From Marsupella aquatica (taxonomy: Eukaryota; Plantae; Marchantiophyta), in contig OZ316891.1 in assembly GCA_973895155.1 (NCBI GenBank), positions 17,139,651 through 17,203,650 of the forward strand: a DNA stretch of 64,000 bases, read 5' to 3'. Shown in pieces: positions 25,619 through 56,200 of this stretch (position 1 is its first letter; every line of letters begins with the position of its first letter). Made by a program: the position numbers and the translations under genes. The notes under the pieces are model-generated. The model had not been told where the DNA came from, searched no databases, and saw nothing but the letters and a program-made list of their open reading frames with translations.

Positions 25619-26768
25619 CTTGGGCTAATATGGGTTCACCTTGTAAATGTATGCAATTAAGGAGGGTTCAATGGAGTTTTGCACTTAGCTATTATTTTGT
25701 GGTGGATCAGCTTCGCTTGCTCCTTTCTTTTGGTATTCACTATTCTTCAGGTTTGGTCCCGGTATGATTGGATTCTTCCTTCTTAGGTGGGTGGAAAGGA
25801 GAATTGGGGGTCGCTGCCCTTGCTTGTACGTTTTCGGTCTGGGGCTCGCGTTTGCTCTCTTCGCTATGGTGTGCTTGGTCTTTCTCTCTCAGTCCTGCGG
25901 TGCTCTATTGCTCAGGTCTTCTTTCGTTCTCTGTGGATGGTGCTGCTTTTTTTTTTCTTGAACCCAATTCCTTCGGCTCTCTTCAGTGTGTTAATTTGCC
26001 TGGGACTCTTCTGTGTTCGCGTTTTATCTCTCGGAGTCTTCTCTGCAATTTCTGTGTATTTCTTTATTCTGCTCTTCTTGTGTGGGATCGATCCGCTTTG
26101 ACTTCAGTCAGGGTCCCTATACGGGTGGTTTCAATTCGGTGAGGGATGGTGTGCCGATGAAGTCCTTATCGATCTTCTGTTTCGTTTCGTCTTGTTTCAA
26201 CGCTGCGCTGTCTCAAGTGTGGGTCTGGGAGTCAGTGGCTACAGGCGGCGAAGCGTTGAATTGTGAATTCAGTGGCTACATGCGGCGAGCGTCGAATTGT
26301 GTCTGAATTGTGTCTAGATTGTGTGGTGCTATCTGTGGAACGACGCCTCATGGCTTTGTCCGGGGCTTGGTCTTCGTGTTGAGTTGGCGCTATCGTTCCT
26401 TCGTGTGTGCTATGCGTCGTCTGCGGGATTTGTCTTGAGTTGCTGTGGGTTTCAAGAAGTTCTACTCTTCTGTCGATTTCCTTTCGTTTCAATTCCTTCG
26501 GATTAGACTGCAGCTGGCCCTTCGTGTTTCTGTTTTCGTTCTGTCTCTATGGTCCTACTGTTTGCCTATTGCTGGCTGGCTCACGAGATCTCTTGATGGT
26601 GGTCTATCGTTCTCAAGCCATAGACGAACAGAGGCCCATATCATTCCACTCGAGGTTTCTATCGAGAAATGGCCCTCAAATGTGGCCAAAAGTGCTCATC
26701 TTTTGGGAAAAACTCTTCGGATCTCCCCTTATGGTTTAGCACCTCTTCGTGGAGAAAAAAAATTGCAT

Positions 26769-26782
26769 TCGTGCTGATAACG
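26769..26782 (-). promoter_or_regulatory. Primer-binding site CGTTATCAGCACGA (Bianca-type)
   Basis: Immediately internal to the 5' LTR; lacks the canonical TGG start, as in Bianca-lineage elements. Confidence 0.7.
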
Positions 26783-26917
26783 TGTTACAAACCATATACT
26801 CCAACAATGTAATGAATCTTATTCATGTGTCCAATATATATACATGAGGTAGTTGAGTTAGATCTTGGTTAGATCTTAACTCGGGTTAAGATATCTAATC
26901 CTAGTTAGGGTATAACA
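26783..26917 (-). repeat. 5' LTR of copia element (135 bp)
   Basis: Direct repeat of 20509-20643. Confidence 0.95.
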
Positions 26918-31557: not shown

Positions 31558-34500
31558 TGTGGTGCGTCCCATGGCGCCCAAAACCCAAGAAACCCCCCGG
31601 CACAAGGCGATTCCCGTAGGTTTCGTCCTCGACGAGGCCGTTTCCACGGCTTAGCAGCATGGGACGCTGCTAATCTCCTCTACTACTACGATTAACATTT
31701 TACACACATATACTGGACAGATCCTTCATCGGGTCATGAGATACTTAGCCGGCCTATTCTAGGCCCTCCCTTGTATTCCTCTCCTAGTCTTCCATTAGGT
31801 ATGTTTGGATTCCGCCGCCGGAATGATCCCCAATTGGCTTGGTTAAGCCGCTAAGACCTCTCTCAGCTCGACACATCCATCTCTCACTCCCTTGCTACTT
31901 CCCTTCATTGATGTGGGCACTCTTCACACAAGTTAATGCGACACACAAATAGCAAAATGACTCCTTCTAACTGAGTTATACCATGCACTTGCCATACAAA
32001 CAGTACATCTCATACACAAGCTCTGCGAACTAAGCCATGAGGCCAACTCTATTCAGTTCTTAGGTATGAGGAAACATGAATATACACAAGGGTCACTGTA
32101 TAACTAACCGAGAGCTTCTCTTACTACTTGATCCCAGCCCTGCTGGTGCAACTAAAAACTTGCTAAAGAAGAGGCCCTTAACTCCCCGCAGCCCAGGTAC
32201 TTATCCTGGTTGTGATCCGCCTGATTCCTTGTAGCGTAAGCCTAATCTACTTACTGTAATCTACCTAACTATAATCTACCTATGTACAGCGAGATAGGAG
32301 CACAAGTGTCGCCCTCACTCGTGGATCCGCAATCCCTCTAATCTAAGTGTCAGGGCCGTCTCCTGGTCCTGATCCTTAGTCTAAACTTGGAGATCAGCGC
32401 CCGCCCTGCCCACTCACGCCTCCTACCTCCACGTCCGCCCTCCCTAAAAGGGACGGCTCCCTTACACCATCACGACCCTGGTGGCTGGTCCTCAATGGAC
32501 GCCCCCAACGCTTCCTCTGCAGCCACTGCCGTTGGTCAGTCCTCTAACAGATTACCTGCCCCGGACCGAGTCAACTCTTCATCGGCTTGACTGGGTCCAC
32601 CCTCGGCTTGGGCCTCAGCATCGGCCACGGCCTCCCCGACATGTTCTAGTGGAGGATCTGGTACCTCGGCTTCATTATTGGTTGTCCTGGCCTCGGCCTT
32701 GCCATCCCCACTTCCTAGGACTGGTGGATCCACCGCCGTGCCGATGCCGGAGGTTGGTGCCGGGTTTATCTTCTCGGTCACAACGGCTTGAGAAGCAGTA
32801 TAACTCCCAAACCTAGAAGGTTTCCGCTTCTTCTTCTTCCCTATTTCGACAGCCGGTTCCTTCCCCTTGCCACTTACCTCCGGCACCGGGGTGAGTGTCT
32901 CGGCTTGTCCTTTGGCCAATACTACCCCTGGTAACTAGGTTGCCCCAATTGGAGTTGGACCTGATGAAGCCAAGCATTTAAATACTGCGGCTTGTTTCTT
33001 CAGCCGCTCCGTTTGGTTGTCGGCCCGCCGCTGTAGGTTCTCCATCTTCCTCGTGATTTCCTCCAACTCCTCCTGGGTCTCGTCCAGGTCCTTGCGCGCC
33101 TCCTCCAGCTCCTTTCCGGCTTCCTCCAATTCTTTCTTTAAGGTAGCCCTCTCCTCCTGGGTTGCTCTTAGCTCCTTGTCAAGCTCTACTACGACCATAG
33201 ACTTCATCTTATTCATCTTGGCATAAGTCTGGTCGAGCTGGTTGTCCTTTTCATGCAGGTCGGCCTTGAAGCTGGCCGTCAGGGATGCAAGCTCCTGCTG
33301 CAGTGCAATAATCCCTTGATAGGATTTCCCTAACTCTGCTTCCTTCTGCTCAAGGGCTCCGCGGATATCTTCGAGCTCTCCTTTCAACGCCCTCTCCCTT
33401 CTCTGAGTCTCCGCCATGGCCCGGTTGTTGGCGGTTAAGTGGGCCTCCTCTGCGTCCCTTAGCTCCCGCTTCCATTTCTCTCTTTCCTTGACTGCGCCGG
33501 CCAACTCTCCTTGGGTCCGAGTTAGTTTTTCTTTGATAATCTGATTGTCAGACTGAGCGGTATCCAACTACCCCTGCATGATGTTTAGCTCATGCCGCTT
33601 AATCTGCAGCTCATCTTGGGCTTTCTTGGCCACCTGCAGGACTTCCACCTCGGCTTCCTTCTCCCTAAGCCGTCGGATGACCTCGTCCTTCTTGCTTCTC
33701 TCCAAAGATGGCTTCTTCTAATCGGTGCTTCTCCAACCTCTCCCTCTGGAAGAAAGGTCCCTGCTCCAACTCCTCCCCAAAGCTGCTGAGCGCCAGGTCC
33801 CCACACATCTCCCCGTACTCCATGGCTCTATCTTTAGCATAGGTGGAGTAAGTAGAAGTCATCGGCAACAACCACCTCGGCCTCTGTTCCCAAGCTGCCT
33901 TGCGAATTTCTTCTACGGTGGCAAGAGGGTTGCTTTTTTTTTTCGGCAAGCCGCTTGATGTCCTCCGGCCAATCTCCTCCTGGTAAATCTTTCTCTAGCC
34001 AGGGCTGCCCTCTCTTCCTCCCTGAGTCGCTCCTGAAAATCTTGTGTCGTCTGCTTTATGCCGTCAAAGCTCGGGGGAGCAACCTCTGGTGGGGGAGACT
34101 CGGGGCTACTTTGCTGGGTGGGGTCCCCTCGAACTACTTTTGGAAGCATGGGGATAAATCGGCCATAGGTCCTTACTCCTGGAACATGATGATCCGACCC
34201 ATAGCTGGAGTTATCATTACTGTAGTCCTCCACCGCCTCCTCCACTGCTTGGACTCCCTGCTTCCCCCTCTGTTCCCCTGGTCCTGCCGTGAAAATGGCC
34301 TCACAGATCCGGGCCCTTGTTCCTCCTCTGGGTTCCAGGCTGTCCTCTCCCTCTGCTCTCCGTGGGAAGGAGCCTTAGGCTGCTCTGCCTCCGATTCAGG
34401 GCTTGAGGCTCCCACATACATTCGCACTCCCGGCTTGTGTTCCGGCCTCCTTCTCTCCTTGGCTCCGGTAAAGGGGTTTTCCCTCCTGAGTCGGCTTAGG

Positions 34501-36273
34501 CCGGCCTCTGGGGCAGTGTCCTGTACCGGTGCCGGTGCCGTTGCCGTTGCTGGTGCCGTTCTCTCCTTCTCCAGCATTTTCAATAGATTCTGCATGCCTG
34601 ATTGCTGCATCGGCAAGTCTTCTTTCCTTGCCCGAAACACCTGCTCGATCATAGGACTGACAGGCTGGTTGGGCTCTTCTGTTGTCGGCCTTTGCTCCGG
34701 AACCTCCTCCGGTGCCCTTGCCGATAGGGGAAGTATTGGGGCAAAGATTTGACTTCTGGCATACCGGCACAACAGCGGCATGTGATAGCCAAGTTGGGAC
34801 ACGCTTCCCACGCCGATCACCTACTGTTCCTCCTTCAAGATTTTCTTTAGTTAGTTGAGGAGGTACCCGTTGTAATCCCGACTTGGGTCTAGCCTTTCTG
34901 CCAGGTAGACCTGAGCCTTGCCGATCTCTGCCCTCGGCAAGTTACAATGCATGGTCACCCGCAAGAAATCAATCATCTCTCCGATGTGCGGGTTGGTGCA
35001 GGTGTTCCGGAAGAATCCATTCTTCATTGATGGTCCTGGGAACGACCGGAACTCCTTGTCAGGTAAGGTCTTCCTGGTATCAACCTTGGTCTTATTACCC
35101 ATCGGCAAGCCAAACACCTCGGCAATCACCCAGGGAGTGAGATAGAAATCCTTCCCATACACCCTCGTGGAATTGGTCTCGGGTTCCCATGATCCCACGA
35201 ATTCTAATAAGTCTAAGTCCGGCACCTCCGGCTTCAGCCATGGTAATCTTACGAAGGCTTCCAAGCCGGATCCGGCCATGAAGCCCTGGTACTTCTTGGT
35301 CTGCATGGCCGTAAAGCATGCATCCTCCTCCCGTGCAAAATGTAATTGCACTTCCTCTGGTAGGGTCGCCGCCCAGCCTTTCCAGGTGTCATCATTTGTT
35401 GGAATGGCATTGATGGGATCAACCTCCTCCTCTTTGGCTTCTCCCTGCCTCCTGTTCTGCTACTCTGCTGGATTCCTTGGTGCCGCTGACCTCATTTTTT
35501 TTCCGGGGTGGCCTCTTCGTTGTTGTTTCCTTTCCTCTCCATCTCGGCTGCCGTGGATGTTTCTCCTAGCACAGTTGCCTTTGTCCACCCTTCCGTGCTA
35601 CCCTTCAACTCCCAGTGCACGTCGTTGCAGCGGTTGATGGCTTCCTGAATGCCGACGATTTTGTCTTCACAAAACAAAAGGTCATCGAGCTGATTGGCAG
35701 TAGGAGTCCACAAGAACTCAGCCTTGATGAGTTCTCCTCCTAAGAAGGCAGACTTCTGCAACTCCCATAGTCGAGCGAGCTCCTGCCATTCTCAAGCTGC
35801 TCTCTCCGATTCTTCGTCCTCGTAAGTCCCAATGTACTCAGTTGCCCGTTCGAACAGGCATCCCCAAAAATGTGTCGCTTGATTGACGTTGCTCATACCC
35901 TCCTTGACTCGATCGTTGGTATCTGTTCCCACCCAGAGTGCTTGCATAAGTAGGTGACAATATTTGGCCTCTCGTAGTCGTCTGCCCAGTTTGTGCTTGC
36001 AAATGAGCCACTATTCCTCAAGAGCGGTCCTTACCCCACTCCTCCTCTGGTCTTCCTTCCCGTTGGTCACCCCTAGCCGCCGACGCTTAGCGCACCCTAA
36101 CCCTAATCGTGTTCTCTCCCCCGACGTCCTTACTTCCGGCCTCGGCCCGGGTTCCATAGTCACCCTTAATTGTTTATATTTTCCTTGTCTTGTTACTATA
36201 CTAAGGTGTTTCCAGGGTACACTCCTGCTTTTACCATGTAAACCGGCCTAGTGATTCCTGGCTAGGCATCACA
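31558..36273 (-). mobile_element. 4.7-kb TG..CA element with 5-bp TSD (giant solo-LTR-like) inserted in LINE RT
   Basis: Ends TGTGGTGC / GCATCACA; TSD CTTCA at 31553-31557 and 36274-36278; LINE RT continues on both sides. Confidence 0.85.
32536..35896 (-). pseudogene. Long decayed gene: plant-mobile-domain-like region plus long coiled coil
   Basis: GLEAFVRLPW..LLEFV..LTPWVIAEVFGLP..KNGFF (34851-35351); heptad-rich 32935-33567; fragments collinear on the minus strand. Confidence 0.6.
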
Positions 36274-39200
36274 CTTCATTTCATCATGTTAGTCTAGGCC
36301 CTGCTAGCTGAAGCATCATCGCGGGTACAGGTAAATGGATTGATGTCTGAAACCATTGGGCTGAAAAGAGGTGTTTGACAGGGTTGCCCACTTTCACCCT
36401 TACTCTTTGTCATTTCCACACAGCCTCTTATGGATCTCATGGATGCAGAACTACTGGCAAGGACTAATGGGGATACAGATATCGGCGGAACTGACCCTTT
36501 GTTATCGATTTTTTGCGGATGATCTAGGAATGCTAATCCCGGCTGCAGAGGAGAGCTTTCACATGGCCACAACAGTGTTGCATTGTTATGAATCTGCAAC
36601 TAGTGCTAGACTTAATCTACGCAAGTCTGTGGTCATACCATTGGCAATGATTGCTATTCCTAGGTGGTTAACAAACACTGGATGTGTGATTAGTAAGCAA
36701 GGGGAGCTGCAAAAATACTTGGGTGCTCCACTGGGGGTGGAACTATGGACCGATCATCTCCACCGCTTTGTTCTTGATAAGATTGGTGCTCGCTTGTCAT
36801 CTTGGGCAAATAAGCTGTTGTCATTTTCTGGGAGGGTCCTCTTGATCAGACATATCCTACGGGCCATACCCGTCTACCATTCGATGTTTCTGAAAGCCTC
36901 GGAGGGCCTGGCGAAGAAATTGATAGCACTCTGTCCGGATTTTCTGTGGGGCTACAATTCTGAAGGAGGCAGAAGAATACCTCTGGTTTCTTGGGCTAGA
37001 ATGGTTAGGCCTAGGATGGAGGGGGGCTTGGGGCTGAAAGACTTTTGCTGCCACTCGGATGCTCTTCTCTCGAAATGGTTCACTGGAGCATTGGACTCCC
37101 CTCACTCGGAATGGGCCTGCCTCTTTGCAGAAAATCTGAAACTGGTCAGTTGGCTGAATTATAAGTGGATCAGGAGGAACCAGTATTCTTTCAAGGATAA
37201 GATGTTGCTCTGCTTTCCCCGAGCATTCAATGGCCTCACATACACTGGAGGGTTATGGAAGCTTGGATACAATTACGCCCTAATTTGGTCTTTGCCCCCA
37301 TGGATCTTATGCCTGGTAGGTGGAATGTAATGGACACAATTCGCTGCCTTCGGGGCTTTCAGTCTTGGCCGAATGCGGACTTCACAATGGTAACCGTGAT
37401 TTGTGGCCGTTTGGGCATTTGCTGCCTCCAAGATCTATGGTCAGCTGAGTTGAGAACATGGCAGGATTTGTCTGTGCAACTGGCACATATTAGAGGATTC
37501 ACTACACGTGAGCGTGGCTGTTGCAGAGAGTTTCTGGAGAAGGTCTCAGAAACTGATGGCTGTAGCATGCACTATGTTACTAGAGCCCGCTGTTGGCGAT
37601 GGGCGGACCGTCCGGCCCTGATGAATGCTTTTAGACTCACCAATAGGAGGGCCTACTCTATCCTTTGCCCTACTGTAGAGGATTTTCTTAGCTTGAACCG
37701 CACTTGGGGCAACACAAAATCAGCTGAGGAATGGAAGGAGGCCTGGACTGGACTGTGGAGGTCTAACCTATCCTCACGGGCTAAAATTTTTGTTTGGAGA
37801 GTCCTGGCCTCAAGATTATTTACGGGAGTCCAAGCGGTTCGCATAGGCAAGGGAGATGGATTTTGCAAGCTGTGTCACGGTGTCACTGAAACCATCCCCC
37901 ACCTCTTTGCTCAGTGTGAGCATGCGCACAAATGCTGGGCCCTAGGTGCTCGGTGCTTCCACGACACCTTTCCTGATTACTCGAGTAGGCTACTAGCCAT
38001 GTTGGATCTGACAGTTGGCAGAGAACACAGCACAATTGCTAATCTTTTCATCTTTTACCAGATCCTCTGGTCATTATGTTTAGGACAGAATGTGCATGAG
38101 TTTCAGACAAATGGCTGCAGGAAATTTGATCTTCAATTTATACTATCGGAAGCAGCTGACCATGTTACTGCGGTGGGTGTGAGCTTGCCATTTGGCAGGC
38201 GTCGCACCAGATTGATGCGTGTCAAAGAACTTATCAATCAAGAGCGAGTTGTGTGGCTAAATAGCCGTTAGGTGCGGATCACGTCTGGCTGAGGTTATCT
38301 TTGGACCTCATGGATGTAGTCTATTGATGCCTTGGCTCATGACTGTTAGCGTGGACATTTGTGATAATTTTATAGCTGATTAGTCTATCGTGCTCAGTAC
38401 TGGCCCCTGGTTTCTGGCTGCTGGCCCAGGCATATGAGAGCTTAGTTTAGTTGGTTAGTTCGCCTTGCTAGGTATTGGCCTCTGAATTCTGGTCGCGCAT
38501 GGCATGCTTGGCTTGTTGCTGGCACTTGTCGCCGATTTTTGGCAAACACAGTTTGCTTCACTGGCTGTCCTTTATGTGGCGCACGACTGCTTCTGGTTCT
38601 TTTGGTGTTGTTTGCGGTGTCCCCCTGCCATGGGGTCTTTCGTGGCTACATTAATAAACAAAAAACAAAATTTCAAGGAAAATCCGTTATTTTCTATCCG
38701 AGCCCCTTTTGAGCCTCAAGCCTTTGCTTTCCCAAGTCAGCATTCTCACAGAATCTGTCTTTTGAGCAGCCTTTTTTGCATAAGAAGGCAAGACAAACGG
38801 CTTCTCCGGGGTTTCCATTGCATTCCTAGCAACTTTCCTCCGTAGTTGAAAGCGCTTCCAAAGATTCCACTCAGACCTGGAAAGTTGAATCAGATATCTT
38901 TAGTCGGATCCGAGAAAATGGTGGAATTTTGGAGACACTAACGTCACCCTTAAAAAGAAAAAAAAGACAAGGAAGCTAAAGATCATTACTCAGAAGACTC
39001 TTCACTATCTTCAGATTTAGAAGACCCGAAGTTCACCATTTTCTTGGAGGCATCATCATCTTTGGACTGTTGAGTACCATTGCCTCCATCATTGTCCTCG
39101 TTAAAATCAAAATTAAGAACAGCACGGAGTCTGTCTTGCTTCTTACTCCCCACCTGCCGGTGCAGAGGCATGGACGTGGAGGCCTCTTTGTTCTTGAGAA

Positions 39201-40937
39201 GTCCAAAGAAAACTTTTGTGGCAGTGTCAAGAAACTCTTTACGATTTTCAATCCCGACTACAAACCTCCCACAATGATCTCGAGCAACAATGTACTTCCG
39301 GCCCCGACAATCCAGTCCATGACAATATCCCCAGGGAGGGTAATTAATTCTAAAACTGACTGCATGAAACCCACAGGCAGCCTTGAATTCCTAGCAAACG
39401 CAAGCTCCGGCAGAGGATCATTTTTTGGCACGGGAAAACCAATGAGATTGGTTATCGAAGGATCCTCTGTATGTGAAAGAGGGCAAAATTTGGGATCCTT
39501 CGGGACCCTACCTTTGGGCAAAACATGCCCAAAAACATTGAGAGTGAGCGTAAAAATCTGCACATCAAATAACGTTTTGTTCAGAATAAACATCAGATAC
39601 TTCGTCAAGAATATGGAAACCATTCATGAAGAGGATATGCCACACTAGCGCCTGGCGCTAGTGTCACCGTCAATCTCCAAAGGAGGACACAAAACAAAAA
39701 CTCTAGAATAGCTCCACGCGCTATTATATGTACCTGCATATCCGAGCAAGGCCTCTACATTGGAGTGCCCATCACAACATTGTGTGTCGAGATACACTGA
39801 AATTTCTATGAATCTTGACAAGCTGCAATGACTTTAGAGACTTGGTCATAGTCGCCCCTGTGCAAAATCGCTAGCAATCCATCATCCGCTAGGAAAGGAT
39901 CCATTGTTCTGAAGAAGGCACTTGGAATCGTATAATCTTGAAGGTTCCATTTAGGAACCTTCCTATCCACAAGTGTTGGTTTTAACCCAGTCGGAAGATA
40001 TATGAAACCAGCATCAACTCCAAAAGCTCTTTCCTTTCCCCCTCGGACAACCCCTTTTGCTCGATCCCTAGACTTCACCAGCTCTTTCCCCCAACCTTCA
40101 ATATTAGAAACCCAATCCGGCTTTTCTCCCTTGTTAAACAGGGGATCAAAACATCTGTAACACTCGACTCCACAAAACAATGTTGAGTACACTTTTGTTT
40201 GAAATTCTCCACATCTCTCTGCAATCCAGTAGACGCAACTGAATCTCGGGAAGAAGATCCAAGCCTATCATCAAGTGGTCCTCTCTTTTTCTTCTTCTTC
40301 ATACTTGCCGCGTCCACTGGAACCACTGCCTTTCCACTCTCCCCAGGGGTTCCCGAATCTGGTGTATTTTCTGCACCAGTGTTAGCTTCAGAGGCCTGAG
40401 GAGTAGCATCATCTTTTACATCAGCGGTGGCATCCGACTTCCTTCCCCCTGAAAGACAGAGATACGTTACTAAATGGAACTAGTTCTCATAATAGCGCTC
40501 GGCGCTAGTATCAATTGGAGAGAAATATGTCATACGAACAAGAGCGAGAATCCCTTACTGAATCCTATGAGGCATACTTATGTTTTTTAAGAGATCGAGT
40601 TGATTCACTGGGAGCTGCAGATTCATTCTTGGCCTTCACTCTTGGCTTTCGGCTCTGATCAACATGCATGACATCTGTCTCGCATTTCTTCTGCAGCTCA
40701 GTTGTCAACACGTCCACTTCAATCGCAAGACCCTACTTCATTTCCAAGACATACCTTGCTGGGATTTGCAACTTTTGCAACTTCATGAAAGCGTCTTTCT
40801 CCACCTTGTCGAAAGGCAGATCCCATTTGTCAGTGTCTAAATACCATGGGCAGTGGAGTCTCTCCCACTCTAACAAGGCTTGGGGTGGAAAATTTCCCTC
40901 AGTTCGGTACATCGAATACAGATCAACAAGATGGTCA

Positions 40938-40990
40938 CCATCTTTTATCATCACCCATCTTTTATCATCACCCATCTTTTATCATCACCC
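40938..40990. repeat. 3 x 17-bp tandem repeat CCATCTTTTATCATCAC
   Basis: Read directly; sits at the deletion junction of copy A. Confidence 0.9.
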
Positions 40991-41750
40991 ACTGGTCTTG
41001 TGGCATCTTGTGTGTATACCAAGAACCCTTGCGAGTCTTCTTTCAAATGGCTTCAAACTTTGCATAACTTGTAGCATCAATGAGGGGTTTGTAGTGCTCT
41101 AGGTTGCGTGATAAAAGACAAGAGATTTTGTCGGCATCAAGAATCCAAGACGGCTCGACCACAACTTGTCCCAAATTACGTCAAAATCTAAATGGAAATT
41201 AGCAGCGTCGGGCACTAGTAAAACACCAAATATAATATCACATCAAAAACCCATCTTGAACTAGTAAGTCATATTAAATGAGGTTGTCCTGAACAATGAC
41301 TTACTGGTTGACAGCGTGCATGGCAGCCTCGAGCTCCACGAGGGAACCTTTATCTCCATTGAAAACAATGCAAGTCACACGAGGGTGGTACTTAATGTTG
41401 TCCGGATGCTCTGCTGTCACAATCAACCACGAATACAAATGGTGATTTCCATCAAAGACACAAAACATCTTGTCTTTCAAAAATTTGAAATCAAGATCAG
41501 CGTCACACTCTTCCTTGAACTTGTCATTCTTGGCCACCCAAATTGGGTCCCAAGAGGCTCTAATCTCATTAGTGCAAATTTGTGGAACCCCATCCGTATT
41601 TGTTGGCTGTACGTAAAATGGCATGCCCATGCGCGAATTGTATCTAGAAATCCGGAATGACTCCTTCAATTTGTCGATGGAGGCACTTTGCTTCTACAAC
41701 ATCCGCACCACTTCCATATGAATCAATCGACATAGAGGAATTTGTGGAGG

Positions 41751-44700
41751 TGTGACGCCGCCGGTACCGTGGGTAATGAGTGATTCGGCCTAACAATGCT
41801 TAGCACGCGCGTTAGGGGTATCTTAGGCCATAATTATTAGCATAATGATAGTATTTAGGTAGCCATTATGAGTAGGAAATCATTAGTCAATAAGGGGCAT
41901 TCGTGTTCGGGCTGGCGGCGGGTTGCCATCACATGCCCGGGTTGCAAGCGTGTAATGGGCCCTCACCTTTCCCCCTTGGGTCCGTATAACAAAGGCAGAC
42001 ACTGACACGAGCTGACCCGGACCGGCAGAGTGGCCGGGACACTACAAGCGTGAAAGGCTCGGCCTATAAGCGACGAGGAGGCGTCAGGCAATCGACGAGC
42101 TCTCAGGGTATAAAAGGGGGCCAATCCTTTGCACTGCACCAGTTATTCAGTCCACGCGCCAGCTTCGACCCCAGTTCTCTCGCTTATCCTTAGTCGCCTT
42201 CTATCTCCTCTGAATGTTGCACACAATCCTTTCCAGTTTGGCCATACGATTCTGGACGCAGTTCCTGTCTATCGGAGGGCACTTGGCCGACTCATTGAAA
42301 CACGCCAACCCGCGCCAATACAAAATCGAATGCAAATATGAGAGAGCCATCCGCCTAGCAGGCCACCACCACTATCTCCTTAACTTTGATTACCCATCCT
42401 AGAGCAAGCTTTACCGACCCAAAGAGATATCAAGGTACTTCTTCAACAAAGGCAAATATATCGGCTTCTAGGAGGCACTGCTTCGGCTTCCGGACCAGGT
42501 CTTCAATATCCCGGGCACGATCGACTTACAGCGACACCACTTCAACCACATCCCCGCTCGGGTCCGGGACATCATCAACAGCGAGTCCAGCACTACCCAG
42601 TCTACAAGGGCATCTACACTTGCTTCGGAAAACCTCTACCAGCACCTGCAGAATTTCATGGCAACCGTACCATCGACTACCGGTGCCAGCCCAGTCGTGC
42701 CCATGCCCGCACCAGCACCAGCTCAGGCTCAGGCTCCGCCTCAGCCTAGCCAAACCCCACCACTAGTTGCCCCACCCATACAGGTGAGATCCGTTGTCAA
42801 CGCTGTAGATCTCAGCAATGACGAAGGGGCTACGTTACCCCTATTCAGGCGTCCCAAAGGAGCAAACACTCAGGGAGCCGGGACTACATCGCCCCCTCCC
42901 CAGGCCCGGACCCGAGTAACGGCTCCAGCGGACAACATGGTGACCGTAGCCGCTCCGGCCCCAATACTAATGGTGGTGGCACTACCTATACCCGATCGAG
43001 AAGATGGGGAGGTGTCACCCTCCCCGAGCCAGTCTCGGGGAAAGAAGAGGAAGGAACCCACAGCTATATCCGGGTTACCCATGACCACCGTAGCCGCAGC
43101 CAAGGTGACAATGCACCGCATGGGGGAGAACGTGCATAAGAACATCCTCCACCCCAAACATGCGGTGTACTTGAAGACTCAGGGGTTTGAGCACCTTGCC
43201 TCTCTCCCCTGGAACACCTGCAGGTACTACGGGGAGGACATGACATAATTCGTCAAGAATTATGACAACGTCCGTCAACATACTCGGCTGCGGGGGAGGA
43301 ATATGTCCCTCACAGAGGAGCGGCTCAGGATGATATTCGGGCTACCCAAGGGCTCCCGGGGGCAAAGGAGCCAAGTACCAATCCTCGAGTTTTCCCTCCA
43401 AGGGGTCAGTGGACAAGGGGTTCGTGATGAGGACCTGCCTCATCCCCGAGATAGCCGACCGACTGGAGTTCCAGAGGTACGCCCTCCACATGATGGAACC
43501 CCAGGGCGAGATCTCCACTGCCCAAGTTATCCAGGTTGAGAACTATCAACCTAGGAAGTGGGCGTCGTACTTCGCTAAGAAGTTCCATGAAGAGATGGAG
43601 CGGCGAAGGAAGTTGCTATACATCGGTGGGAAGGCGTATTTTGCAAGCCACATCGAGATCATTCTTGAGTGGTACACCCGGTTTGATCGACAAACCCTTC
43701 CCCGGGTCAACGTAACTAAGTTGGTCCCAGCTAGGTGGGTCTTCCCGGCCCTGGACAGACGGCCCCAACCCGAGGCCCAAAGTCTGGCGGCCACGCAGGC
43801 CTCACCCACCCCACCTCCACAAGTAGCCATAGCCATGGCCAAAGTGATACCAGACGAGGCAGTAATCGCAACCTTAAACGCGATCAACCAGGCCGGGCCG
43901 AGCGCAGAATTCAAAGCGGTAGAAAACTTGGCCGAGCCTAAGGGTCCAAAAAATCCACCAATGGCTATTCCGGAGGAAAGGATGATGATGGAGGAGGACA
44001 CTCCAGCCCCTTCCAACACTACATCCCCAGGGTTGGATGTCACTACCCCGGCCCCCGCGCGAGTTGACATCTGCCCGTGCCCAAATCCGCACGGGCATAC
44101 CTGGACCACCCGGAACTCTTCGTACCGGGTACATTTATGAACGGGCTTTTGGGAGATTTCTCCCAAAAGATTGCCCGGGATACCGGGGAGTTCATGGCCC
44201 GGAAGGTAGCCTACTTCTTTAATCAGGAGTTAGTTACCACGGTAAAAGCAGGTCGGGCCCAGTCAAAGGCCCTTTAGAGGATAGAGCGGTACCGGGTTGA
44301 GTCCGTGTTCCTAAAGGACAAAGTTGCGGCTCAAGAGGCTGAGCTTCTGCAACTATGACCCAAGGTTGCAGCCGCCAATGAGTTGTTAGCAAATGCGCAC
44401 GCCCTTACCGCCCTAGCCAAACAGGCCAAAGCTGGGAAGGAGGCCGAGATTGCACGGCTCTGGACCCAGGTTGACAGTTTGAAGAACCAAACTGTCATTT
44501 GGCAAAAAGACCCGGAGGAGGCCAAAGAGCGGGCCCAGCGTGACACTACGGAGATTGCCACCCTGCAGACCGAAGTGGCACAGCTTCAAGCCAAAGCCAA
44601 GAAACAGACCTAGGTGGTGGACAAGTTGACGAGCAACGCCCAACAACTGGAAGAGGCATGCCAGGAGGCAACTGAGGAGACGGACGTGGCAAAGCGAGAG

Positions 44701-45690
44701 AACGAATCTCTACTAGACCAAGTCCAACTCCTCAAGATGGACAACGACAGACTCTGTAGGCAGCGGGATGGCCGCTCCCACTCGGACGGCTTTGGCAAGC
44801 GCACCAGGCATTAGCGGAGGGTTAGGCTTAGAATAGAACTAGGAGTAGCTAAAACAGGCTATTAGGACAAGCGCCAGCCAGAAGATAGCGGCACTAACAC
44901 ATTAGCTAGCCTGTGTAGAATAGATTAGACTAATAGGACAAACCGTAACCAGCTTAACAAGGATATAAGTTAGCGTAGATTCGGGCACGAGGCCAGGCTG
45001 GTCCTCAGCCCTTAGTATTTAGCAGCCCCCCAGTAGAGGCAAGGGGGGATTTTAGACTCAAAAGTTGGCCATTCGCGGTATGCGTGGGGAGTCCCAAACT
45101 CGGTGAAGTACCGGAGTGCCAAGGGGAGGGTATACGACTAAGCTCGTTGGGCGAGTGCGGAGCCGGGCTCCATTGTAGTGTATACTCCTCGACCTTGGGC
45201 CCATGCGTTCACAAGGTGTCGGGTCAACCAATCGTAAGTGTATGATCATAAATGAATGAAATCCTTTCCCCTCAATTCCTTCGTGTAAATCAAGATTTAT
45301 GTTTATGTGTAAATGCATGTATGAGTCTCGTGTGCAAGTATCAATGTCGGGCCAAACACGTTATGCCAAGCATGCACGGGGTGCAGGTTACGGATATGGG
45401 GTTGCAAGCCGGGGTTGAGCACTTGTACTAATGGATCCGGATCGAAGGCGGTAACACAAAGGCTTAGAAGTCCGTAAGCCGGGGTCGACCCCGTGTCAAC
45501 TAAGGTACGTTCCGGCAGAACACAAACTATACCTAGGAGGTGTCTGTACATAACAGTAAACACACTTAGCGCTAGTTTACGTGAGTTAGGAGCATTCCGT
45601 GCGTCCCTCCTTGCCCGAACCCTCATATTTACAAAGGATGTGCCTGTCTAAGCCAAACCCCGGGTTAAGGCCTAGGCTGACGACGTGACA
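41751..45690 (+). mobile_element. 3.9-kb TG..CA element with 5-bp TSD (giant solo-LTR-like)
   Basis: Ends TGTGACGCCG / CGACGTGACA; TSD GGAGG at 41746-41750 and 45691-45695; removing it restores the copy A frame (KEPP-QIPLCRL); TATAAAA at ~42110. Confidence 0.88.
42658..44814 (+). pseudogene. Decayed gene related to 32536-35896 (PMD-like region plus coiled coil)
   Basis: GFEHLASLPW..FVKNY..LTEERLRMIFGLP..KGF, followed by coiled-coil fragments 44077-44814. Confidence 0.6.
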
Positions 45691-47021
45691 GGAGGCTCCT
45701 TCTCCAATCCTCTAAAATCTTTGCCAAAGGACAAGACATGCTTGGATATGTAATCGTCCATTGAAAGTCCAGCAACACCAAAATAAACTTGTGCAACTTC
45801 CTCAATCGTGTCCATTCTCCCCCTTCTTGATTGCGCGGTTGGAAGAGTTGAGCCAATGTCTGAATGTGAATGAGACGCAGCCGACCGAGTCACGCGATGG
45901 GTGTACACAAAACCTAAAAAAGAGGATTGTGAGGACTCGAAATGACCGACATGACTATCTCCCATCCTTGTATTACCCCATTGAGAGATATGGCGATTGC
46001 GTTGAACAAAACGTCAAACAGTATCGTACAACTCTCCTAGAGCCCCTGAGCCAATACGGAGTAACAGACTTAGGTACAAAATGTCACGTTCGAACAGGCT
46101 GCTCCTAGAGAATTACGTATCTCCCATGAGCGCCAAGTCCCCATAGAGGGTTAAGAGATGGAGTCTCTAGCACATTAGAATGTTGCTCAATAGTAACACC
46201 AACAGAGCCGAACACTTGGAAGATTACCATTGGACCAACAATGGTCTTATACTTTGGCAGTGTGATCAGCAATCTTCAATGTTACCGTTAAAATATGACC
46301 GTTGATTGATTTAGCCTTATTGATAGCGCCAAGCGCTAGCAAAAACAACTCTATATTACCCAATTTAAACTACTAATTTCAATAGCGCCGAGCGCCAACA
46401 AATCGACCACATATGTGTTTTTACACAATTCAAATGGATTTCCAGCCTTGAGGGACCAAATGGATGTTATTTAGAACATTTTATCCTTAAAAGTTTATTA
46501 GCGCTCGGCGCTATCATAAATGATATCCAATTCAAAGCTAATCATCACGCAAACATAATACAAACTCATCCATATCCAAAAATATTTTCAGAATTCCACT
46601 GGTACCAGAAGGATAATTTTGAGCATTCCAATGATAGCGCCAAGCGCTAATATGGAATGTGTCACGGGTAAGATCCCTCCATCGAAAACTACATGCATTT
46701 TCAAGACTTCCAAATGACATTTGGTACAAAGATTGACTCATTCCCATAAGATAGAACATCAAAAAACACGAACTGACTCATGCAAACTTCGGCAAGGGGA
46801 TGTCTAAGAGTTTGGAACTCCATTTACGGTCATTGGATTTACTTCACCAAGTCTAGAAACATCAAGTGTACACTTCAAGATTTTTTAAAAACTGGGGAGT
46901 AACCTCCCACTAGATTCCGAGACTACCATGTAGGCAAAAGATTGACTACCATTACTACCATTACTGCAACAACTGGTCGTGGCTGTCAACATCGGACTCC
47001 ACCAAATAGAGTGGGCCCGAC

Positions 47022-47290
47022 CTCCGTGACAAGAAACAGGAAACAGTGATGATCATAACAGGAAAAATAGTTGAACAAAACAGGAGAATTTGTACTATCA
47101 TTGACAAAAAACGGCTTAATTTTGACCCAAACCAAAGAGGTCAAATTCAACATCAACTCAAAAAGATGGGGAAAACGACAATTATCGGAAGATGCCTTTA
47201 CTAGCGCTTAGTCCTAACCAAGCGTTCGATACCGTTACAAAATATCATTAACAAAATACCCGCTCAACATCTACCGGAATGATCAAAGGA
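47022..47290 (+). repeat. Left TIR (~270 bp) of the MULE
   Basis: Inverted homology to 62855-63123; its inner part is duplicated again at ~47555-47635. Confidence 0.72.
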
Positions 47291-50261
47291 TAACGGTTTC
47301 TAAGGCAAGAAAAGGTCATCCTCGAGAATGCATGTGAAAGAAATCCACACGTTCAGACTTGGAAACTACAAACTGAAACCAAGTAAGGAAATGAAGTCTA
47401 GCGCCGGGCGCTAACAAAACTGAAGTCCAAGTGACAAAACTGAAGTCCAAGTGACCCGTACAATGAAATTTACACATCCGTAAAATTGTAAAAACAAATT
47501 TAGTTTTTTGTGCAACCCACAAAACATTGAGCCGTGTTGAAAAGAAACCAAATGTTGTTTACTAGCGCCAGGCGCTAACCAAAACAAGGTTACCGTTACG
47601 AAATGACAAGTCCAACATACCCGTTGAACGTAAACAAGAATACTAAGCCTTCCTATAAACCATCAGCATTATGCCTCGCTAGAATATAACGCAGTTCCGC
47701 AATGGTAAGAATCGGTTGGCTTGGGAGGATATTGTCCACAGGATCAAGCTTGCAGATAACTTTGTAAACCCAGTACAAGTGTTTACATGGCATGAAAGGT
47801 TTCCCTCGAGAATGTCAACGAAAGAAATCTTCACAAGAGCAACAAGGGAAAATGCAAATCTGCACCCAGTAAGTATTTGCAGTTCGTAAATGTGCATGTG
47901 TGCGTATCTGGAATTGTTTTCCGTATGAATTTCCCGATGAAACTTCCATAGTTTTGATCAAAGTCATTGTTTCTTTCGTTGCTGATTCAATCCTTTTATG
48001 ATATTCCTGAGTGAGATTTGATCTGGAGATCATCGCACGCCCGTTTCTTGTTTGAAAATGGATGTTGACTTGTGCAAGATCGATCTTTTCAGGGAAAATG
48101 TCAATGTTGATTCTCAGTTCAAATGGAGAAGGACAACGTGAAATAGCACCTCCTCTCGAGACTTCAATGCCCTGCTCGTGAAGGAAATTCAACTCCAGAC
48201 TTGAAAGATGAGTGCCTTTCTGTACTGGCAAAAAGTCTGGGCAAGTAGGGAGGTTCACAATACCTCGACGAGGGCGGCTCTTCCAGCAATCACGAGTGGG
48301 GCAGAACCAGATAAGCTCTGGATGGTGTTCACCTCTGAATAAGCGGTAACCTTTGATGACTATTCCGACAACCCCTGCATTTGAAGGATATCCGACCTTC
48401 TTAATTCGATTACGACACTCATCTCGATCACAACTTCCAGACAACGTCCCATTACACTGAGGTCCAGCACCGTGTCTGGAAACTCTCCGCAAATGCCACA
48501 ACCTGGGTACAACATCCACTTCAAAAAGCGAAGTGTCTACAAGAATGAATGGAGTGGTGTTCGGAACACTTTCTGGAACTTTGGAAGATTGAGTGACATG
48601 ATGGGAAACTGGAGAGCCACTTTCAGACAAATCGATAACTGGATTCGAAGGAGGAGTTCTAAGTATCGGAATGTGCTCAAACTCGACTGAGGTCAAATTT
48701 CTCCTCTTGCAACCTCGGGTGTTTGGCGTAGTTATGAGAACCGTGTCATGTCAATGGGAGTCTTGTGGAGAGACATTCTCGGTCGCCGGACCTTTTCTTT
48801 TCATAGACTTCGTCACAAAATCCCCATTCAACGGAGAATCCCTCTCCAAATCAAATTCTGCTGCATTTGCGAGTAACATATTAGAGGCTTCTTTGAAGAG
48901 TTTTGGGGACCCTGCTTGGTCAGCTGAACGAAAAGCCAATTCAAACACTGTTGGACCGGTACCCCGATGGAGCCCTTCACGATATGCTATATAGGCTGCT
49001 ATTTGTGAGATTGCTCTGTTGTGATCGGTCTTACATCCTTCGAACAAACCAACTGTTTTCTTTCCCTGCCATGCTTTCATGATTCCGTGAACAGCTTCAG
49101 AACCAGTGCAATTGGGAATCATCCCCCCTTCAAGTGCACTTTTGCTCTGAAAAAGAGTTTTGTCAAATTCAGTACAATATAGCGAATAAAAATAAAGTGG
49201 AACTTCAAAATGGGCGGACGAAAGGTATGAATGTTTTCATGATTATTGTGAAGATTGAAGAAGCTATCAAGCTATTCGTACGTTAGCGCCCGGCGCTGGC
49301 AAAAACATCAATAAATATCACAAGTAGAAAAGGGATATTAATACTAGCTGTAGTTTGCTATGAAGAACCAAAAACACACTTAAAGGTCTTCAAACTCGGT
49401 ATTCGTTCCCATAAAGAACAAGATGGGGTTGGTTTGATAGATTTAATCAATAATAAAGAACTAAAAATGTTTTCCACACATAGTAATCAAGTTTGATTAC
49501 TTTAATAAGGTACTTTGAAGATCGCTCCACAGCGGTGAGTGGTTTTCAATGACAACTCAGCATCATGTAACCATAAATTAATGAAAAGGGAATGATTAAC
49601 AAAATACAAGGAAAATAATCTCAAAGTATGCTAAGGGAGTCTGGAATTGACCAAGGTTGCTCCTTAGACATAAGTCAAAATGAAAAGACTTAAGGATTCA
49701 AATCCACGTTTGCTTTTCAGATCTAAAATGCTTACTAGAGTACCTTTTAAAATGCCGTAAACATGTCTTATCCTTTCTTTCTAAGTGGTACTCAGATTAA
49801 ATCTAAAAGGTAGCTACTTCAACATTTAGATGGTACTAAGCAACATGAAAGAAAATCCATCAATTCCAATAAGACTTAAACTCAATGAGTTAACTTTAAG
49901 AACTCAGGAGATTGCAATGAATCACCAAAAAGGAATCTATCATCACAAGATCCAAAGATTTCTTACAAATGGATTTTACTTCTTGTGTTTATAATCAGAG
50001 GTAAAAACACAAGAAGGAGGTAAGTCTCTCCAAATGTTAAACCTAATCTCGAACTCATAGATTCATGATCAATGGGTTTAACACAAGGTAGAGGCAAAAA
50101 TGCAAAACTTAACCATACTTCTACACTAGTGGTGGAGGGGTCTTATAGTAAAAACCTACAGGGTAAGAGGTCATAGGGTCGAAGAGACATGCCTCTTCAT
50201 ACTCCTCAAAAAGTCAAAACAGCGATTCAGTAAGTGAAAAGCCGGAAAATGGCTAAGTAAG

Positions 50262-50325
50262 AACCCGTAAAAGCGTAAAAGCGTAAAGACGTAATCGCGT
50301 AAAAGCGTAAAAACATAAAGGCATA
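50262..50325. repeat. CGTAA-core minisatellite (7-8-bp period)
   Basis: ccgtaaaagcgtaaaagcgtaaagacgtaatcgcgtaaaagcgtaaaa. Confidence 0.85.
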
Positions 50326-50554
50326 ATCTGGTGAATGCGGTAGACTTAAAGACTTACCGAATTCAACTATTTTTAACTTTCTACTCCTGGCTCGGAAAAT
50401 TCTGAAAATTTTCCAGTGAGTTTCTCTATGTATAGACTACATACTAAAGAAGTTTCATAGCTTTTAAAGCTCTATAACACATTTTAAAAAATAGGGAAAG
50501 ATGCACTACTCTTAAAACTAACTAAAACACTTGGTTTCTTCCTTAAGCTTGTTG

Positions 50555-52972
50555 TCAGATGTCGTCTGGTTCGAGTAGCTCCACGAGGGTAACAGTCCAA
50601 GCTTGAGTAACTTCCATCAGCTCACCCTGGCGTGGGGATCCTCGAGAGTAGGGTAGGCATCTCAATTGCCTTTCAGGATACATCAGGGGCATTCTTCTCC
50701 TTAGATAACATATGTCTATTCGAAGAGCTTCTCTATATATCCCAATCACGTCATAATTATTGCAAGTAGCAGCATATACTTGGGGATAATGGTATAGAAA
50801 TTCATCAGAGTTCAGCATCCTGGAATAGAAAGGGTGAAGCCTCCATTTGACATCTCTGAAATACCGGTTGAAGTTGGCTAGAGTTTGAGAGGTGACATTG
50901 TTCCAGATTCTCTGTTTCTCAGCTAATGAACTGGTTGAAACAAGGGTAACCTTGGGCTCTCGAGGAAGGTAAGCGTTCTGGGGAGAAGTAGATTTCTTAC
51001 TCTGCATGAGAAAAGAAACCACAAAATCTAGGGCATAAGCTGCCAAATTTCCAAAATATGCCAGAACTAAATCTGGATCCTCCACCTCTACATCACCCTG
51101 AAGTAGCATCACAGCAAGAATGGGCCGGAAATAGAGAGAGTCAGTCCAGAACTCATCAAATTGTGTCATCTCCAGTCTGGAAGTTCCAAAACACCTGAGG
51201 TCGAAGATATAACTGGCCTCTGTCTTCTTGAGATAGTAGTATTTCCAAAATTCTCCAACCAGTGGTCTGTTGGCCTGCATAATCTTACAGGTCTCCACAT
51301 ACCTGTGCACTTGGGACTCTGGATGTCTCGGGTATCTACTCTCGATGGTGGCATTCCGAGGTGTTTGAGTAGATGAGGTGACAACTGCTACTAAGTTTGG
51401 ATTGGATCTTAAGGCAGTATCAACATCTTCAAATCCCTGCCTTGGGGATAACTCAAGAGAATTATCATAAGATCTATAAGTTTCACCATCTGAGGGTGGA
51501 TCAGAGTCTTCAGGTATATCCTCTCTGACGTAAGGGTGTTCATATTGTGACCGATTGTAGGTGGGTCTTTTTGTGGGTTCGTAGTAAAAATCAGGGCTGT
51601 AAGGTTGCGAACCTGGGCTAGGAGTGGGACTAGTAGTTGGACATTGTTGGATCAAGTTGCTGACCACAGATGCTATCTGTCGAGGTTCACACTGTAGTAT
51701 TTCTAACAAGTCATCCACAATGGCCACACAGCTGATACTATCTGTTACTGGAATAGGCTCACTTGTTTCTAGGGGAGGGGGCTGTACAGTGACAGGAGTA
51801 CAGATCACAAACTCCATTGGTGCTAGTTCTCTTGGGGAAGAGGTCATTCTGACAGGACTTAGCTGATCATGAAATGGTGATCTCAAACTAACAGCCTCCA
51901 TTCTCAAATTATTAACAGCGTCATATAGTCCATCATTACTGCAACTGAGGAGAGATGTCAACTTATCAATAAGCTGCTAATTTGACTCTGCCTTCGAAGG
52001 AGTGGACCTAGTGGTCTCATGAGGAGTAGCATCAGTTGGTGTAGCAACATCGTCTTGTTGATGAATGCTCCTTACTTCTTCAGCTTCTAGTGGATCTGCA
52101 TCCATAGTCCGGCTAGGGAAATTCTCATTACTTATTGATTGGCAAACAACTTCCCTGCTATGCATAGGAGAATGTGTAGGGATTTCTAATGAAGTATCCT
52201 CCATAGGAACATCAGTATTCTCCTCAACGTTCTGATCATTCGAATTCAATGGGGTGACATGTACAATGTCCTCCATAGGAATTTCTTCTTCAATACCCAA
52301 GTCAATCAGGAGTAACCCCCTCTCTGTCTCTTCCTCCAGATATAAACAGTCATGAGTATAATAGAGCTGAGAGAGATAATTTTGTAAACAAGTGGTCCTC
52401 CCTGCTTCCAAGCTCCTTACTTGATCCTTCATTACATTAAACAGAAGTAGGGCCCAATTTACTTTTATAGCTCCACTGTGAGCAGCTACAATGGTGTTAG
52501 CCAAGGCCATAGGACAGAGAGTTGGCTTTTTCGGATGAAGAATGGGTACCAGAAATTCCATGAGCACTCTCAATTTAGGATAAGTACACTGGGACAAGTT
52601 CCAACCATTCTTGGCATTTCGAGTTCCTGAGAAGTATGGAGCAGATAAGTCCTGCTTCTTGGAATATAACGCCTCTCCTTCTAACGGGCATCCAAAGGCG
52701 TAAGCAATTTGCTCAACAGTCCACAGGCTGGGGTGAGCTCGAATCGTTTGCCTGAATTCAATCGGGATGATAGTCCCCTTCACAAAATCCTGCAAGTAGG
52801 AGTCGAGCTCGACATTCCAGGAGATCCTGAGCAAGCGCTCCAATCCTAAGTGTTGTAAAGAGTCTTGTAAATTAGAAAGACTATCAGGCGCTCGTGGTAT
52901 ACGAGCTGCCACTACTTTTGAGACTGCTAGAGCTTCAATTTGATACTATTCCTCAACACCCAGGTTCGCCAT
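50555..52972 (-). pseudogene. ~800-codon gene with two in-frame TAG stops; N-terminal domain related to the genes in 31558-36273 and 41751-45690
   Basis: ORFs 52946-52972, 51977-52912 and 50555-51961 are in one frame; LGLERLLRISW..LQDFV..WTVEQIAYAFGCP..KNGW..LMEFL. Confidence 0.7.
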
Positions 52973-53139
52973 AGCTGCAATGGTGATTTGCGTGCTGCGA
53001 AGGTTGCTTTCGAAGAGAAAGAGCAAGTGAATAGGGGTGGTGAAAATACAGGAGTGAGCGCCTGAACTCTGTGCTTGATTCCTATCAAGGTATGAAGTCC
53101 CCAATTTGTTTCTAAGTCCCGTTGCAAAGTTAGTCGTAG

Positions 53140-53265
53140 CGCCGTAACGTGAACTTTCCTTAAACGCGTAAGGCGTAAGCCGTAATCCCGTATTGGCGTA
53201 AACTCGTAACAGCGTAAACCCGTAAACCCGTAATGCTCTTATGCGTAAATGCGTAATCCCGTTAT
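53140..53265. repeat. CGTAA-core minisatellite (7-8-bp period)
   Basis: gcgtaaggcgtaagccgtaatcccgtattggcgtaaactcgtaacagcgtaaacccgtaaacccgtaa... Confidence 0.85.
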
Positions 53266-56200
53266 AAAGTATATCCATAGTTTACACTTGGCATTTTAAC
53301 AGCAACAGCAGGCTTAAATACTGTAAAAAGTTTAAATTTTTCAGTAATTTCAGGTTTTTGATATTACCCAATACTCACACTAGCGCCAGGCGCTAGTATA
53401 CATTGACTCACCAAAGTATGAAATTTCCCCACTGATGCCACCTCACAACCCACCAAGCGATCCATCTTTGCAACATTCTAAGTTTCCCAGGAATACAATT
53501 TCCAGATCTCCACGATGAATCAATCTCTCGTGATACCCTGTAGGCTTCCACAAATGAAGCGGCATTCCGCAACTTGTCCCAAAGGATTCGATGTTCAACA
53601 CGTTTTTCGTCAAGTACTCCTTCGATAGAGTGCCGATGCAAAGACTGATAAAAGTGGAATGCATCCGATCGCTCTCTCTCCTGGTTTGGATGGCAGTCAA
53701 AGAAGACATTCCTAACCGCTATCCATCCCGCCTGAGCGTTATCCGCCATGAAACCATGGATTTCCACACCGTTTAAACCGTTCTCCAAAGCGACTTTGAT
53801 CATCAACCTCCAAGCTTTCTCAAGCGATGCAGTGTCCTCTGCTTTGAGTTCACAAGTAAATATTGTGCACAAAGCTCGATAGTTATGGTCATACACATGT
53901 GCACTAAAAGTACTCCATTCTTTTGACATCCTTTTCATCACGTCAAAGCTCACCCATGCTCCTTCTAGAGGCCCCCCTTTCTTCATCTGACGCAGTAAAT
54001 CTACTCCCGATCCATGACCTTTGATAGTCATTTTGAAAATATGCGCTCTATCACCTTTACAACCCTGCCCAGGAAGAAGATATCTTTGGAGAAAAGGAAA
54101 CGTAACATTCTTCTGCATGCGAACCAGATATTCCAAATCACCTCGACCAACCTGATCTTTGCGAACGCTCTTAAATAACGCAAAAACTTCTGAGGCGTTG
54201 AAACGAGCATAAGTGATTTCCAGATTTCTGATTCTTCTAGCTTTGAAATGTCATCCACAGACTCACCTACGGCATCCATTAAAGATCCAGTGATCTCATT
54301 TTTCAAAACGCACGGTGTAGAAGAAGGAGACTTCTCATGTTGTCTCCGTATTTCTTCTATTGCTATTTTCTCAGCACTTCTAGACCAGACCTTCCGACAT
54401 GGATGGTTGTGCACTCCCATATGGATTGCAAGTCATGACATGTGTTTTGCAGTGTCATTTTTGATCAAAACTTGCGGGTACATATAAAACATTTTTGCTG
54501 GACAAGACTCAACACAAAATGGAACTTGAAGGCAATAGCAACAAACAATTCCTCCAGCATCGATAAACCTCCCAGGACAATGCTGACCAGAGAGCTTGGG
54601 GGTCCCATCCCATCCATTACAGTTTCTAACTTGAGTCCTGGTGTAAAACTCACATGCTCTATTTTGGCATTCGAGAGAACCACTACAGCTTACTTTCCCA
54701 AACTCCCACATCTTCTTCGGAACGACATTAGCAGAAGTAGGAAGGATTCTAGTCCAGAGGTAGCAGTCCTTGCATCGATCCATGTTTCGCAGACGATCCC
54801 CTTTCGAGCCAACACCTTCAACAGGTGGAAGCTCAAATATGGTATTCCCATTGTACTCTATAGGTAAGCATTCAACCTGTTTGTGAATGAATGCCTTGGA
54901 CCTAACAAAGCGCAATAACTCACTTTGTCCAGTTGACTTCAACAAGGCATCAAGTGCGCTTCTTCTCTACACAACCAGAACAGGACGAGTTAGAGTGTCT
55001 CCATCATCAGACTTCTCCGACGCAATCAATACGGGGAGTACCTGGGGCGTCAACAAATTGGTACTTCCGCCCTCCTTATTGACCTCACCGCCCTTTGAGA
55101 TTGGTGGAGAACCCTCAGAGCATTCAGCGTCGGACGTAAGGTCAATGACATCGTGAGCGACCTGATGCGTCTCCACCTTGACATGAACGATGTCCCTTAG
55201 TTGAATGAAAATCAAGTACTCCACGCCATATTCGAGATTCCAAACAACGTCCTCCGCTTCAGTATCAAAATGAGCGGGCCCATCGTTCAAAGTTCTGATA
55301 CTCAAAATATGTTTTCTCGTCACCCCAAATCTTCCACACAGGTAATTATCACTAACACGTTTCTTGGTTTTGAAAATCGACACAGGGATCGTCACAACGT
55401 CACCTGTATTCGGACACGTTATTCCAATAATGCGAGACATTCTAACTCCCCAAAGATAACCGACTACATAAAATAATGATACATTGTAAAATGAAACTAG
55501 TTTGGATGGTTGAGGGTTTCTTCTAAATCCAAGTCTCAAACGGAAAGAGCCGTCGAGCGGTTATAGGATCCGTTGGGTACGGATTTTCTTACCATTCAAG
55601 AAACGACAAAACCATAAATTCGGCGGATAGTTACTGTTGAATTAATGGTTTTGACATTGTAACCAAAGGGGTAATATAGTAGCGCCAGGCGCTAGCATTT
55701 TCCACATCTGAAAGAGCCCAAAAAATGAACAACAAAAGCAAAGATCATCGGCCATTTTGGTTACTGACACAGGTTAACATTCTACGATAGGTTTCGGGTT
55801 TCCTTGGAAATATATCGGGTTTCCATGGAAATAGCCCCTTATTTATGTCAGACGACAATATTACCCTCTGCTTATATTAAAATCGATCCATTTGAGATCG
55901 AGTAGAAGCTATCACAATAATAGCGCCAGGCGCTATCATAAAATTTCTTTAAAATGTCAAGATGTACTCGTACATTATTTATAGAAACTTACACATTTCG
56001 TGTCCAAACATCTACCATTTTGAGGTGTCTCGTTACTAGCGCCGAGCGCTATTATTGAAATCTACACATTTGTTCCCTATTTGAGACTAAAAGAAAAATA
56101 GCGCCTGGCACTTTCATATACTTTATAGAAATAGAAGCCGTTTATTACAAAATCTTTCTCGCTTTAGTCCAATCATTCGCATGATTTTTTAGTACAATGT

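Follow-up and report, generated by a model that had tools for sequence, protein, structure and literature searches.

Three gene-bearing insertions in a liverwort genome: possible solo LTRs of Gypsy retrotransposons carrying a gene for a predicted VANC-like protein

What kind of mobile element ends like an LTR retrotransposon and carries a single long gene in place of the retrotransposon's own? The question is raised by three insertions, here called units 1 to 3 (Table 1), in a 64,000-nucleotide stretch of the genome of the liverwort Marsupella aquatica (the window). The units have integrase-type ends, 5-bp target duplications, empty sites, and dispersed copies; they share one protein domain and contain neither gag-pol nor an LTR pair. 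The window consists of nested plant transposons, among them a CACTA remnant, a pair of L1-type LINEs, a Copia element, and palindrome-rich DNA-transposon-like elements. The Copia element (20509-26917) has 135-bp LTRs that are 99% identical and is therefore young, and a structure at 17355-18507, with inverted arms of 33-48 bp lying ~1 kb apart and internal 76-bp repeats, is possibly a small non-autonomous DNA transposon. Unit 1 is inserted in the reverse transcriptase of an L1-type LINE. Units 2 and 3 interrupt diverged members of one large family of elements (38700-63800), in which 20 TAGCGC..GCGCT palindromes occur. This family carries an ORF with a DGNH(R) motif (56995-57387), a match to the C-terminal part of N6/N4 DNA methylases that lies just below the cutoff (60001-60633; E 1e-5), a NIF phosphatase-like ORF (63001-63807), and pieces that read as Mutator-like transposase and have no Pfam match (53408-54966 and 47815-49236); it may be a plant DNA transposon with a methylase.

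Table 1. Features of the three insertions, in window coordinates
Feature	Position	Strand	Description
Unit 1	31558..36273	-	4716 bp; GC 53%; ends TGTG..CACA
Unit 1 target duplication, left	31553..31557		CTTCA; right copy 36274-36278
Unit 1 accessory gene	32539..36247	-	eight pieces (stops, frameshifts); low-complexity middle
Unit 1 gene, coiled-coil end	32938-33567
Unit 1 shared domain	34761..35300	-	model pLDDT 91.5; best fold match VANC21
Unit 2	41751..45690	+	3940 bp; GC 54%; ends TGTGAC..GTGACA
Unit 2 target duplication, left	41746..41750		GGAGG; right copy 45691-45695; empty-site joint found
TATA-like box, unit 2	42105..42120	+	upstream of gene; motif only
Unit 2 accessory gene	42250..44808	+	broken by stops and frameshifts; coiled-coil end
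Unit 2 shared domain	43150..43666	+	split by one stop and one frameshift
Unit 3	49349..53379	-	4031 bp; GC 41%
Unit 3 target duplication, left	49344..49348		CTAGC; right copy 53380-53384; within host palindrome
TATA-like box, unit 3	50130..50150	-	downstream of gene, ~800 bp before unit end; motif only; candidate LTR promoter
CGTAA array, unit 3	50258..50337	+	8-bp period; downstream of gene; candidate binding sites
Unit 3 accessory gene	50558..52972	-	805 codons; two stops
Unit 3 shared domain	52343..52876	-	model pLDDT 95; best fold match VANC21
Second CGTAA array, unit 3	53143..53256	+	same direction; upstream of gene; candidate binding sites

The ends and 5-bp duplications given in a preliminary description of the locus matched exactly in position and in letters. 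This signature is worthless here by itself, because the window contains 699 TG..CA pairs at 3- to 5-kb spacing with a matching 5-mer, 47 of them with TGT..ACA; host continuity was therefore tested, and the claim that each unit interrupts a host sequence was borne out. Both halves of the reverse transcriptase split by unit 1 align to a paralogue in the window, and the empty site (31553-31557/36274-36285) exceeds the paralogous LINE by 4 bases, which may reflect an older small duplication. The halves of the host ORF around unit 2 rejoin in frame against a paralogue at 56.9 kb, and the host of unit 3 is one of the 20 palindrome copies. Empty sites were found in contigs of related public runs, which join 41745 to 45691 with 5 shared letters for unit 2 (runs X3 and X4) and 49342 to 53379 with 6 shared letters for unit 3 (X1 and X4). 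Unit 2 belongs to a dispersed family with a fixed right end, since 13 contigs in X1 and 17 in X3 depart exactly at 45690 into mixed flanks. In X1 the host sequence had a summed contig depth of 900-8,100, compared with 30,000-251,000 across unit 2 and 11,600-59,700 for the greater part of unit 3; this measure gives no copy number and was therefore read as high repetitiveness and nothing more. Two features expected of solo LTRs were found. The units occupy genuine insertion sites with TG..CA ends and 5-bp duplications, and dispersal as families with fixed termini was seen from the right end of unit 2 and from the empty sites found for units 2 and 3.

No LTR pair was detected inside the units by self-alignment and three shuffle-controlled tests, which recovered the window's Copia element as a control. 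A hidden short pair, of the TRIM or LARD kind, had been named in advance as evidence against the original interpretation; with no two direct LTRs within the duplications and the Copia control positive, assignment to either class is ruled out. The short terminal inverted matches described earlier are present, at 11/17 positions in unit 1, 10/14 in unit 2, and 3 bases in unit 3. No inverted ends of ~100 bp or more occur in units 1 to 3; in unit 3, an inverted match that barely exceeds shuffled sequence (score 37 against a shuffle maximum of 34) is not terminal. The units are free of gag-pol, as had been reported, and their ORFs match no gag, pol, or transposase family, nor was there any Rfam match in 30-55 kb. 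Among 18 rows listed of loose contig ends beside other copies, no clear primer site or purine tract was seen, and none of the listed rows fell at 49349. An ATAGTC beyond 45690 that is common to two runs may be a purine-tract tail or simply reflect shared loci, and rows at 49370 (1-2 contigs per run) look primer-site-like, yet begin 21 bases inside unit 3.

We consider it somewhat probable that the three units are solo LTRs of three Gypsy families of Athila/Tat type, whose LTRs have grown to 4-5 kb with an accessory gene. Of the two possibilities offered at the outset, solo LTRs or a non-autonomous class mobilized by integrase, we lean toward the former. As members of the latter, the units would be whole elements that move singly with only an accessory gene, and their mobilization in trans would fall to an integrase or to a DNA transposase resembling one. 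Duplication-flanked copies were indeed seen only singly, and a CACTA-ended family with a transposase remnant, described below, sets a direct precedent for DNA elements that carry only a helper. DNA transposons with TG..CA ends and of similar size also exist, namely, Ginger and GingerRoot (PMC6839031). According to the same paper, GingerRoot has terminal inverted repeats of 100-150 bp and 6-bp duplications and Ginger1 has 4-bp duplications, whereas the units have no such repeats and 5-bp duplications; these differences, together with the lack of a transposase family in the ORFs, exclude membership in Ginger/GingerRoot. The units have no end sequence in common beyond TGT..ACA, and therefore three separate mobilizers would be required. 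We regard single-piece elements of this kind as rather unlikely.

Each unit carries one related long gene, as proposed, but all three copies are broken. The gene of unit 2 is collinear with that of an intact relative (P0158, 906 aa). The unit 3 protein is 66% identical to the intact P0003 (808 aa), with conserved end domains and a variable linker (142/181 identical positions in the shared domain, 45/115 in the linker, and 200/265 in the C-terminal domain). This C-terminal domain (~265 aa; 50558-51350) has two relatives among those fetched, P0003 and P0083, and belongs to no family. A lack of similarity among the three proteins had been named as a result that would count against the original reading; the pairs 1-2 and 1-3 score above 1,000 of 1,000 shuffles, and the pair 2-3 is weak (17/1000 and 45/1000 shuffles reach the score). 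A profile built from 140 relatives, with window sequences excluded, matches units 1 to 3 (E values of 9e-56, 1e-21, and 7e-10 plus 3e-15) and has no other match in the window. The motif GLExxxxLPW..FV..LTxxxIxxxFGLP..KNG, first put forward as common to all three, is only approximate in units 2 and 3.

Profile searching recovered 205 relatives at an E value of <=0.001, the best 150 of which were listed. No Pfam cutoff was reached by any of the 63 relatives scanned or by P0001-P0003. Two of the 30 relatives looked up come from the liverwort Calypogeia fissa and are the only named ones. In a quick tree of 84 rows, which left out the 62 of 140 relatives shorter than 160 aa, units 1 and 2 cluster with the Calypogeia proteins and unit 3 clusters with proteins encoded by the Gypsy and CACTA elements described below. 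A word-based protein search returned no match for unit 1 and a single relative for unit 3; it also returned no long fused form (908-2590 aa), which is weak evidence of absence. No relatives were found in viral contigs or prokaryote genomes, and a sequence search of solved structures gave no match (best E value of 0.036, on low-complexity parts).

A scan of metagenomes for the domain yielded 36 loci. One of them, L001 (1-10852), is a complete, circularly assembled Gypsy element, in which capsid, reverse transcriptase, RNase H, and integrase are followed by the domain gene in sense. Past this gene lie a purine tract at 6565, ~1 kb bounded by TG and ACTACA, and, at 7576, a primer-site-like sequence, which we take to match tRNA-Asp. 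L001 is called Athila-like because of its layout and primer type, and tRNA-Asp is the primer given for Diaspora and Calypso in PMC1142308. A second, nearly identical purine tract with the same core, at 3762, separates pol from the domain gene, and 11 same-direction AGCGCTA motifs are present. The domain gene itself sits outside the LTR. A homologue between pol and the 3' LTR, as expected of a Gypsy 3' accessory ORF, is thus found in L001 and for the unit 3 clade only. Homology between the C-terminal domains of the unit 3 and L001 proteins was rejected (hhalign probability of 0.1).

The layout of L001 bears on the origin of unit 3, which on the minus strand consists of a 400-bp head, the gene, and a 1.2-kb tail with an ACTACA terminus. 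The units may be old Athila/Tat deletion derivatives, some of them amplified, each composed of a 5' LTR head, the internal gene, and a 3' LTR, so that the gene was never in an autonomous LTR. L001 is laid out in the ordinary way, and its ~1.1 kb after the gene resembles the tail of unit 3. Unit 3 also has CGTAA arrays in both head and tail, contig depth is lowest at its head, and 1 of 12 tests gave a weak alignment between its first 150 bases and the tail (2/60 shuffles reach the score). However, such a derivative should show a near-identical repeat of the LTR head, which the other 11 tests did not find, and the one weak match overlaps a CGTAA array. An element without an LTR pair would moreover undergo no renewed reverse transcription, but the family of unit 2 is dispersed and has a fixed end. 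We consider an origin by deletion unlikely.

The other 35 loci (L002-L036) represent one family with a CACTA left end near 9089-9100 and 16 distinct flanks; a search for its right end found none. Here the domain gene lies opposite a DUF4216 transposase remnant that is just below the Pfam cutoff. The domain is present on both L001 and the CACTA-ended family and is therefore carried by class I and class II elements alike; PMD has likewise been reported from Tat and Mutator elements (PMC4408406). Travel of the domain on CACTA elements is compatible with each unit being an ordinary short solo LTR that was later hit by a gene-carrying DNA transposon. We consider this very improbable: none of the 15 joints listed excises the whole gene from unit 2 or 3, the gene regions are covered as deeply as the ends, and one rare gene would have had to enter three LTRs independently in a span of 22 kb.

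These loci also qualify the preferred reading of the units as gene-bearing solo LTRs of Gypsy elements. The link to Gypsy gains support, but the gene is internal in L001, a protein of the CACTA-ended family is just as close, and element context is lacking for units 1 and 2.

Structural models of the domains of units 1 and 3 have VANC21 as their best fold match over the whole domain, at 6-12% identity and with moderate scores. The VANC21 domain has been reported to be PMD-like, and the accessory gene is predicted from these models to encode a DNA-binding protein of VANC/PMD fold. An earlier suggestion that the domain relates to PMD or to Athila/Tat accessory ORFs agrees with this fold and with the homology to a Gypsy 3' ORF but not with Pfam, in which the family matches none of PMD, Transposase_28, and Athila ORF-1. 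The unit genes resemble VANC of VANDAL transposons (VANC21, PDB 9lnj/9lnk; PMC5735166) in combining a conserved domain with a variable linker and, in unit 3 and L001, in the same-direction short motif arrays of their non-coding DNA. Such dense motifs stand out in unit 3 and L001; in unit 1 they are weak, and unit 2 has none. In contrast to the unit genes, whose named relatives are from a liverwort, VANC rides Mutator-like DNA transposons and is called dicot-specific in PMC13547354.

The LTR status of the units, a shift of priming, and the function of the protein are the parts of the solo-LTR model that we infer. Plus-strand synthesis would come to be primed at a purine tract that precedes the accessory gene, such as the second tract of L001, whereby the gene would join U3 and be copied into both LTRs. 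Central purine tracts occur in plant elements (PMC7466625, PMC12885004, and PMC7197481). Two long LTRs would then recombine, with loss of gag-pol, leaving one LTR and the target duplication. Finally, the protein may bind short same-direction motifs of its own family, such as the CGTAA arrays of unit 3, and counter silencing, so that intact solo copies could act in trans; the copies in units 1 to 3 are broken and would therefore not do so.

The MMTV sag gene is a retroviral gene in U3, and it offers a parallel for a gene that lies inside an LTR and survives in solo LTRs, as proposed for the units, although MMTV is an animal retrovirus with a much smaller LTR and its protein is unrelated. The units resemble solo LTRs of large-LTR Gypsy elements in their TG..CA ends, 5-bp duplications, 4- to 5-kb size, and lack of gag-pol; PMC1142308 gives LTRs of over 5 kb for Ogre and 4.2 kb for BAGY-1. 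They differ in that 60-80% of each unit is a long conserved gene and in that we infer their LTR status. With accessory ORFs of OTA Gypsy elements, units 1 and 2 share a conserved domain, a low-complexity linker, and a coiled-coil end. Such ORFs include the env-like ORF of Athila, PMD with a coiled coil in Tat/Ogre, and Transposase_28 in Retand (PMC6317226, PMC4408406, PMC11963269, and PMC7264820). They are described as lying in the internal region, whereas the gene of the units lies in a duplication-flanked piece without pol. LTRs of up to ~5 kb and accessory ORFs are thus both known, with the ORFs placed internally in PMC6317226, PMC7264820, and PMC11963269. No report of a plant LTR enclosing such a gene was found in a literature search that had most subscription journals outside its reach. 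The novelty is firmer for the domain family and its predicted VANC-like fold than for the proposed placement of the gene in an LTR.

Solo-LTR formation is the host's main way of deleting retrotransposons. If the gene does lie inside the LTR, solo LTRs would be more than inert remnants, and repeat annotation, in which LTRs count as non-coding, would overlook such families. Tentatively, several retrotransposon lineages of non-seed plants might have moved a VANC-like anti-silencing gene, of a family shared by Gypsy and CACTA elements, into their LTRs, in which case solo-LTR formation would leave behind a gene and motifs that protect full-length copies. Accessory genes of plant LTR retrotransposons have been described without known function in PMC7264820, PMC11963269, and PMC4408406. 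A family of 205 proteins outside Pfam, present on Gypsy and CACTA elements, with a VANC-like predicted fold and a candidate motif in unit 3, makes an anti-silencing role testable. If that role is true, such systems would extend to retrotransposons and to non-seed plants.
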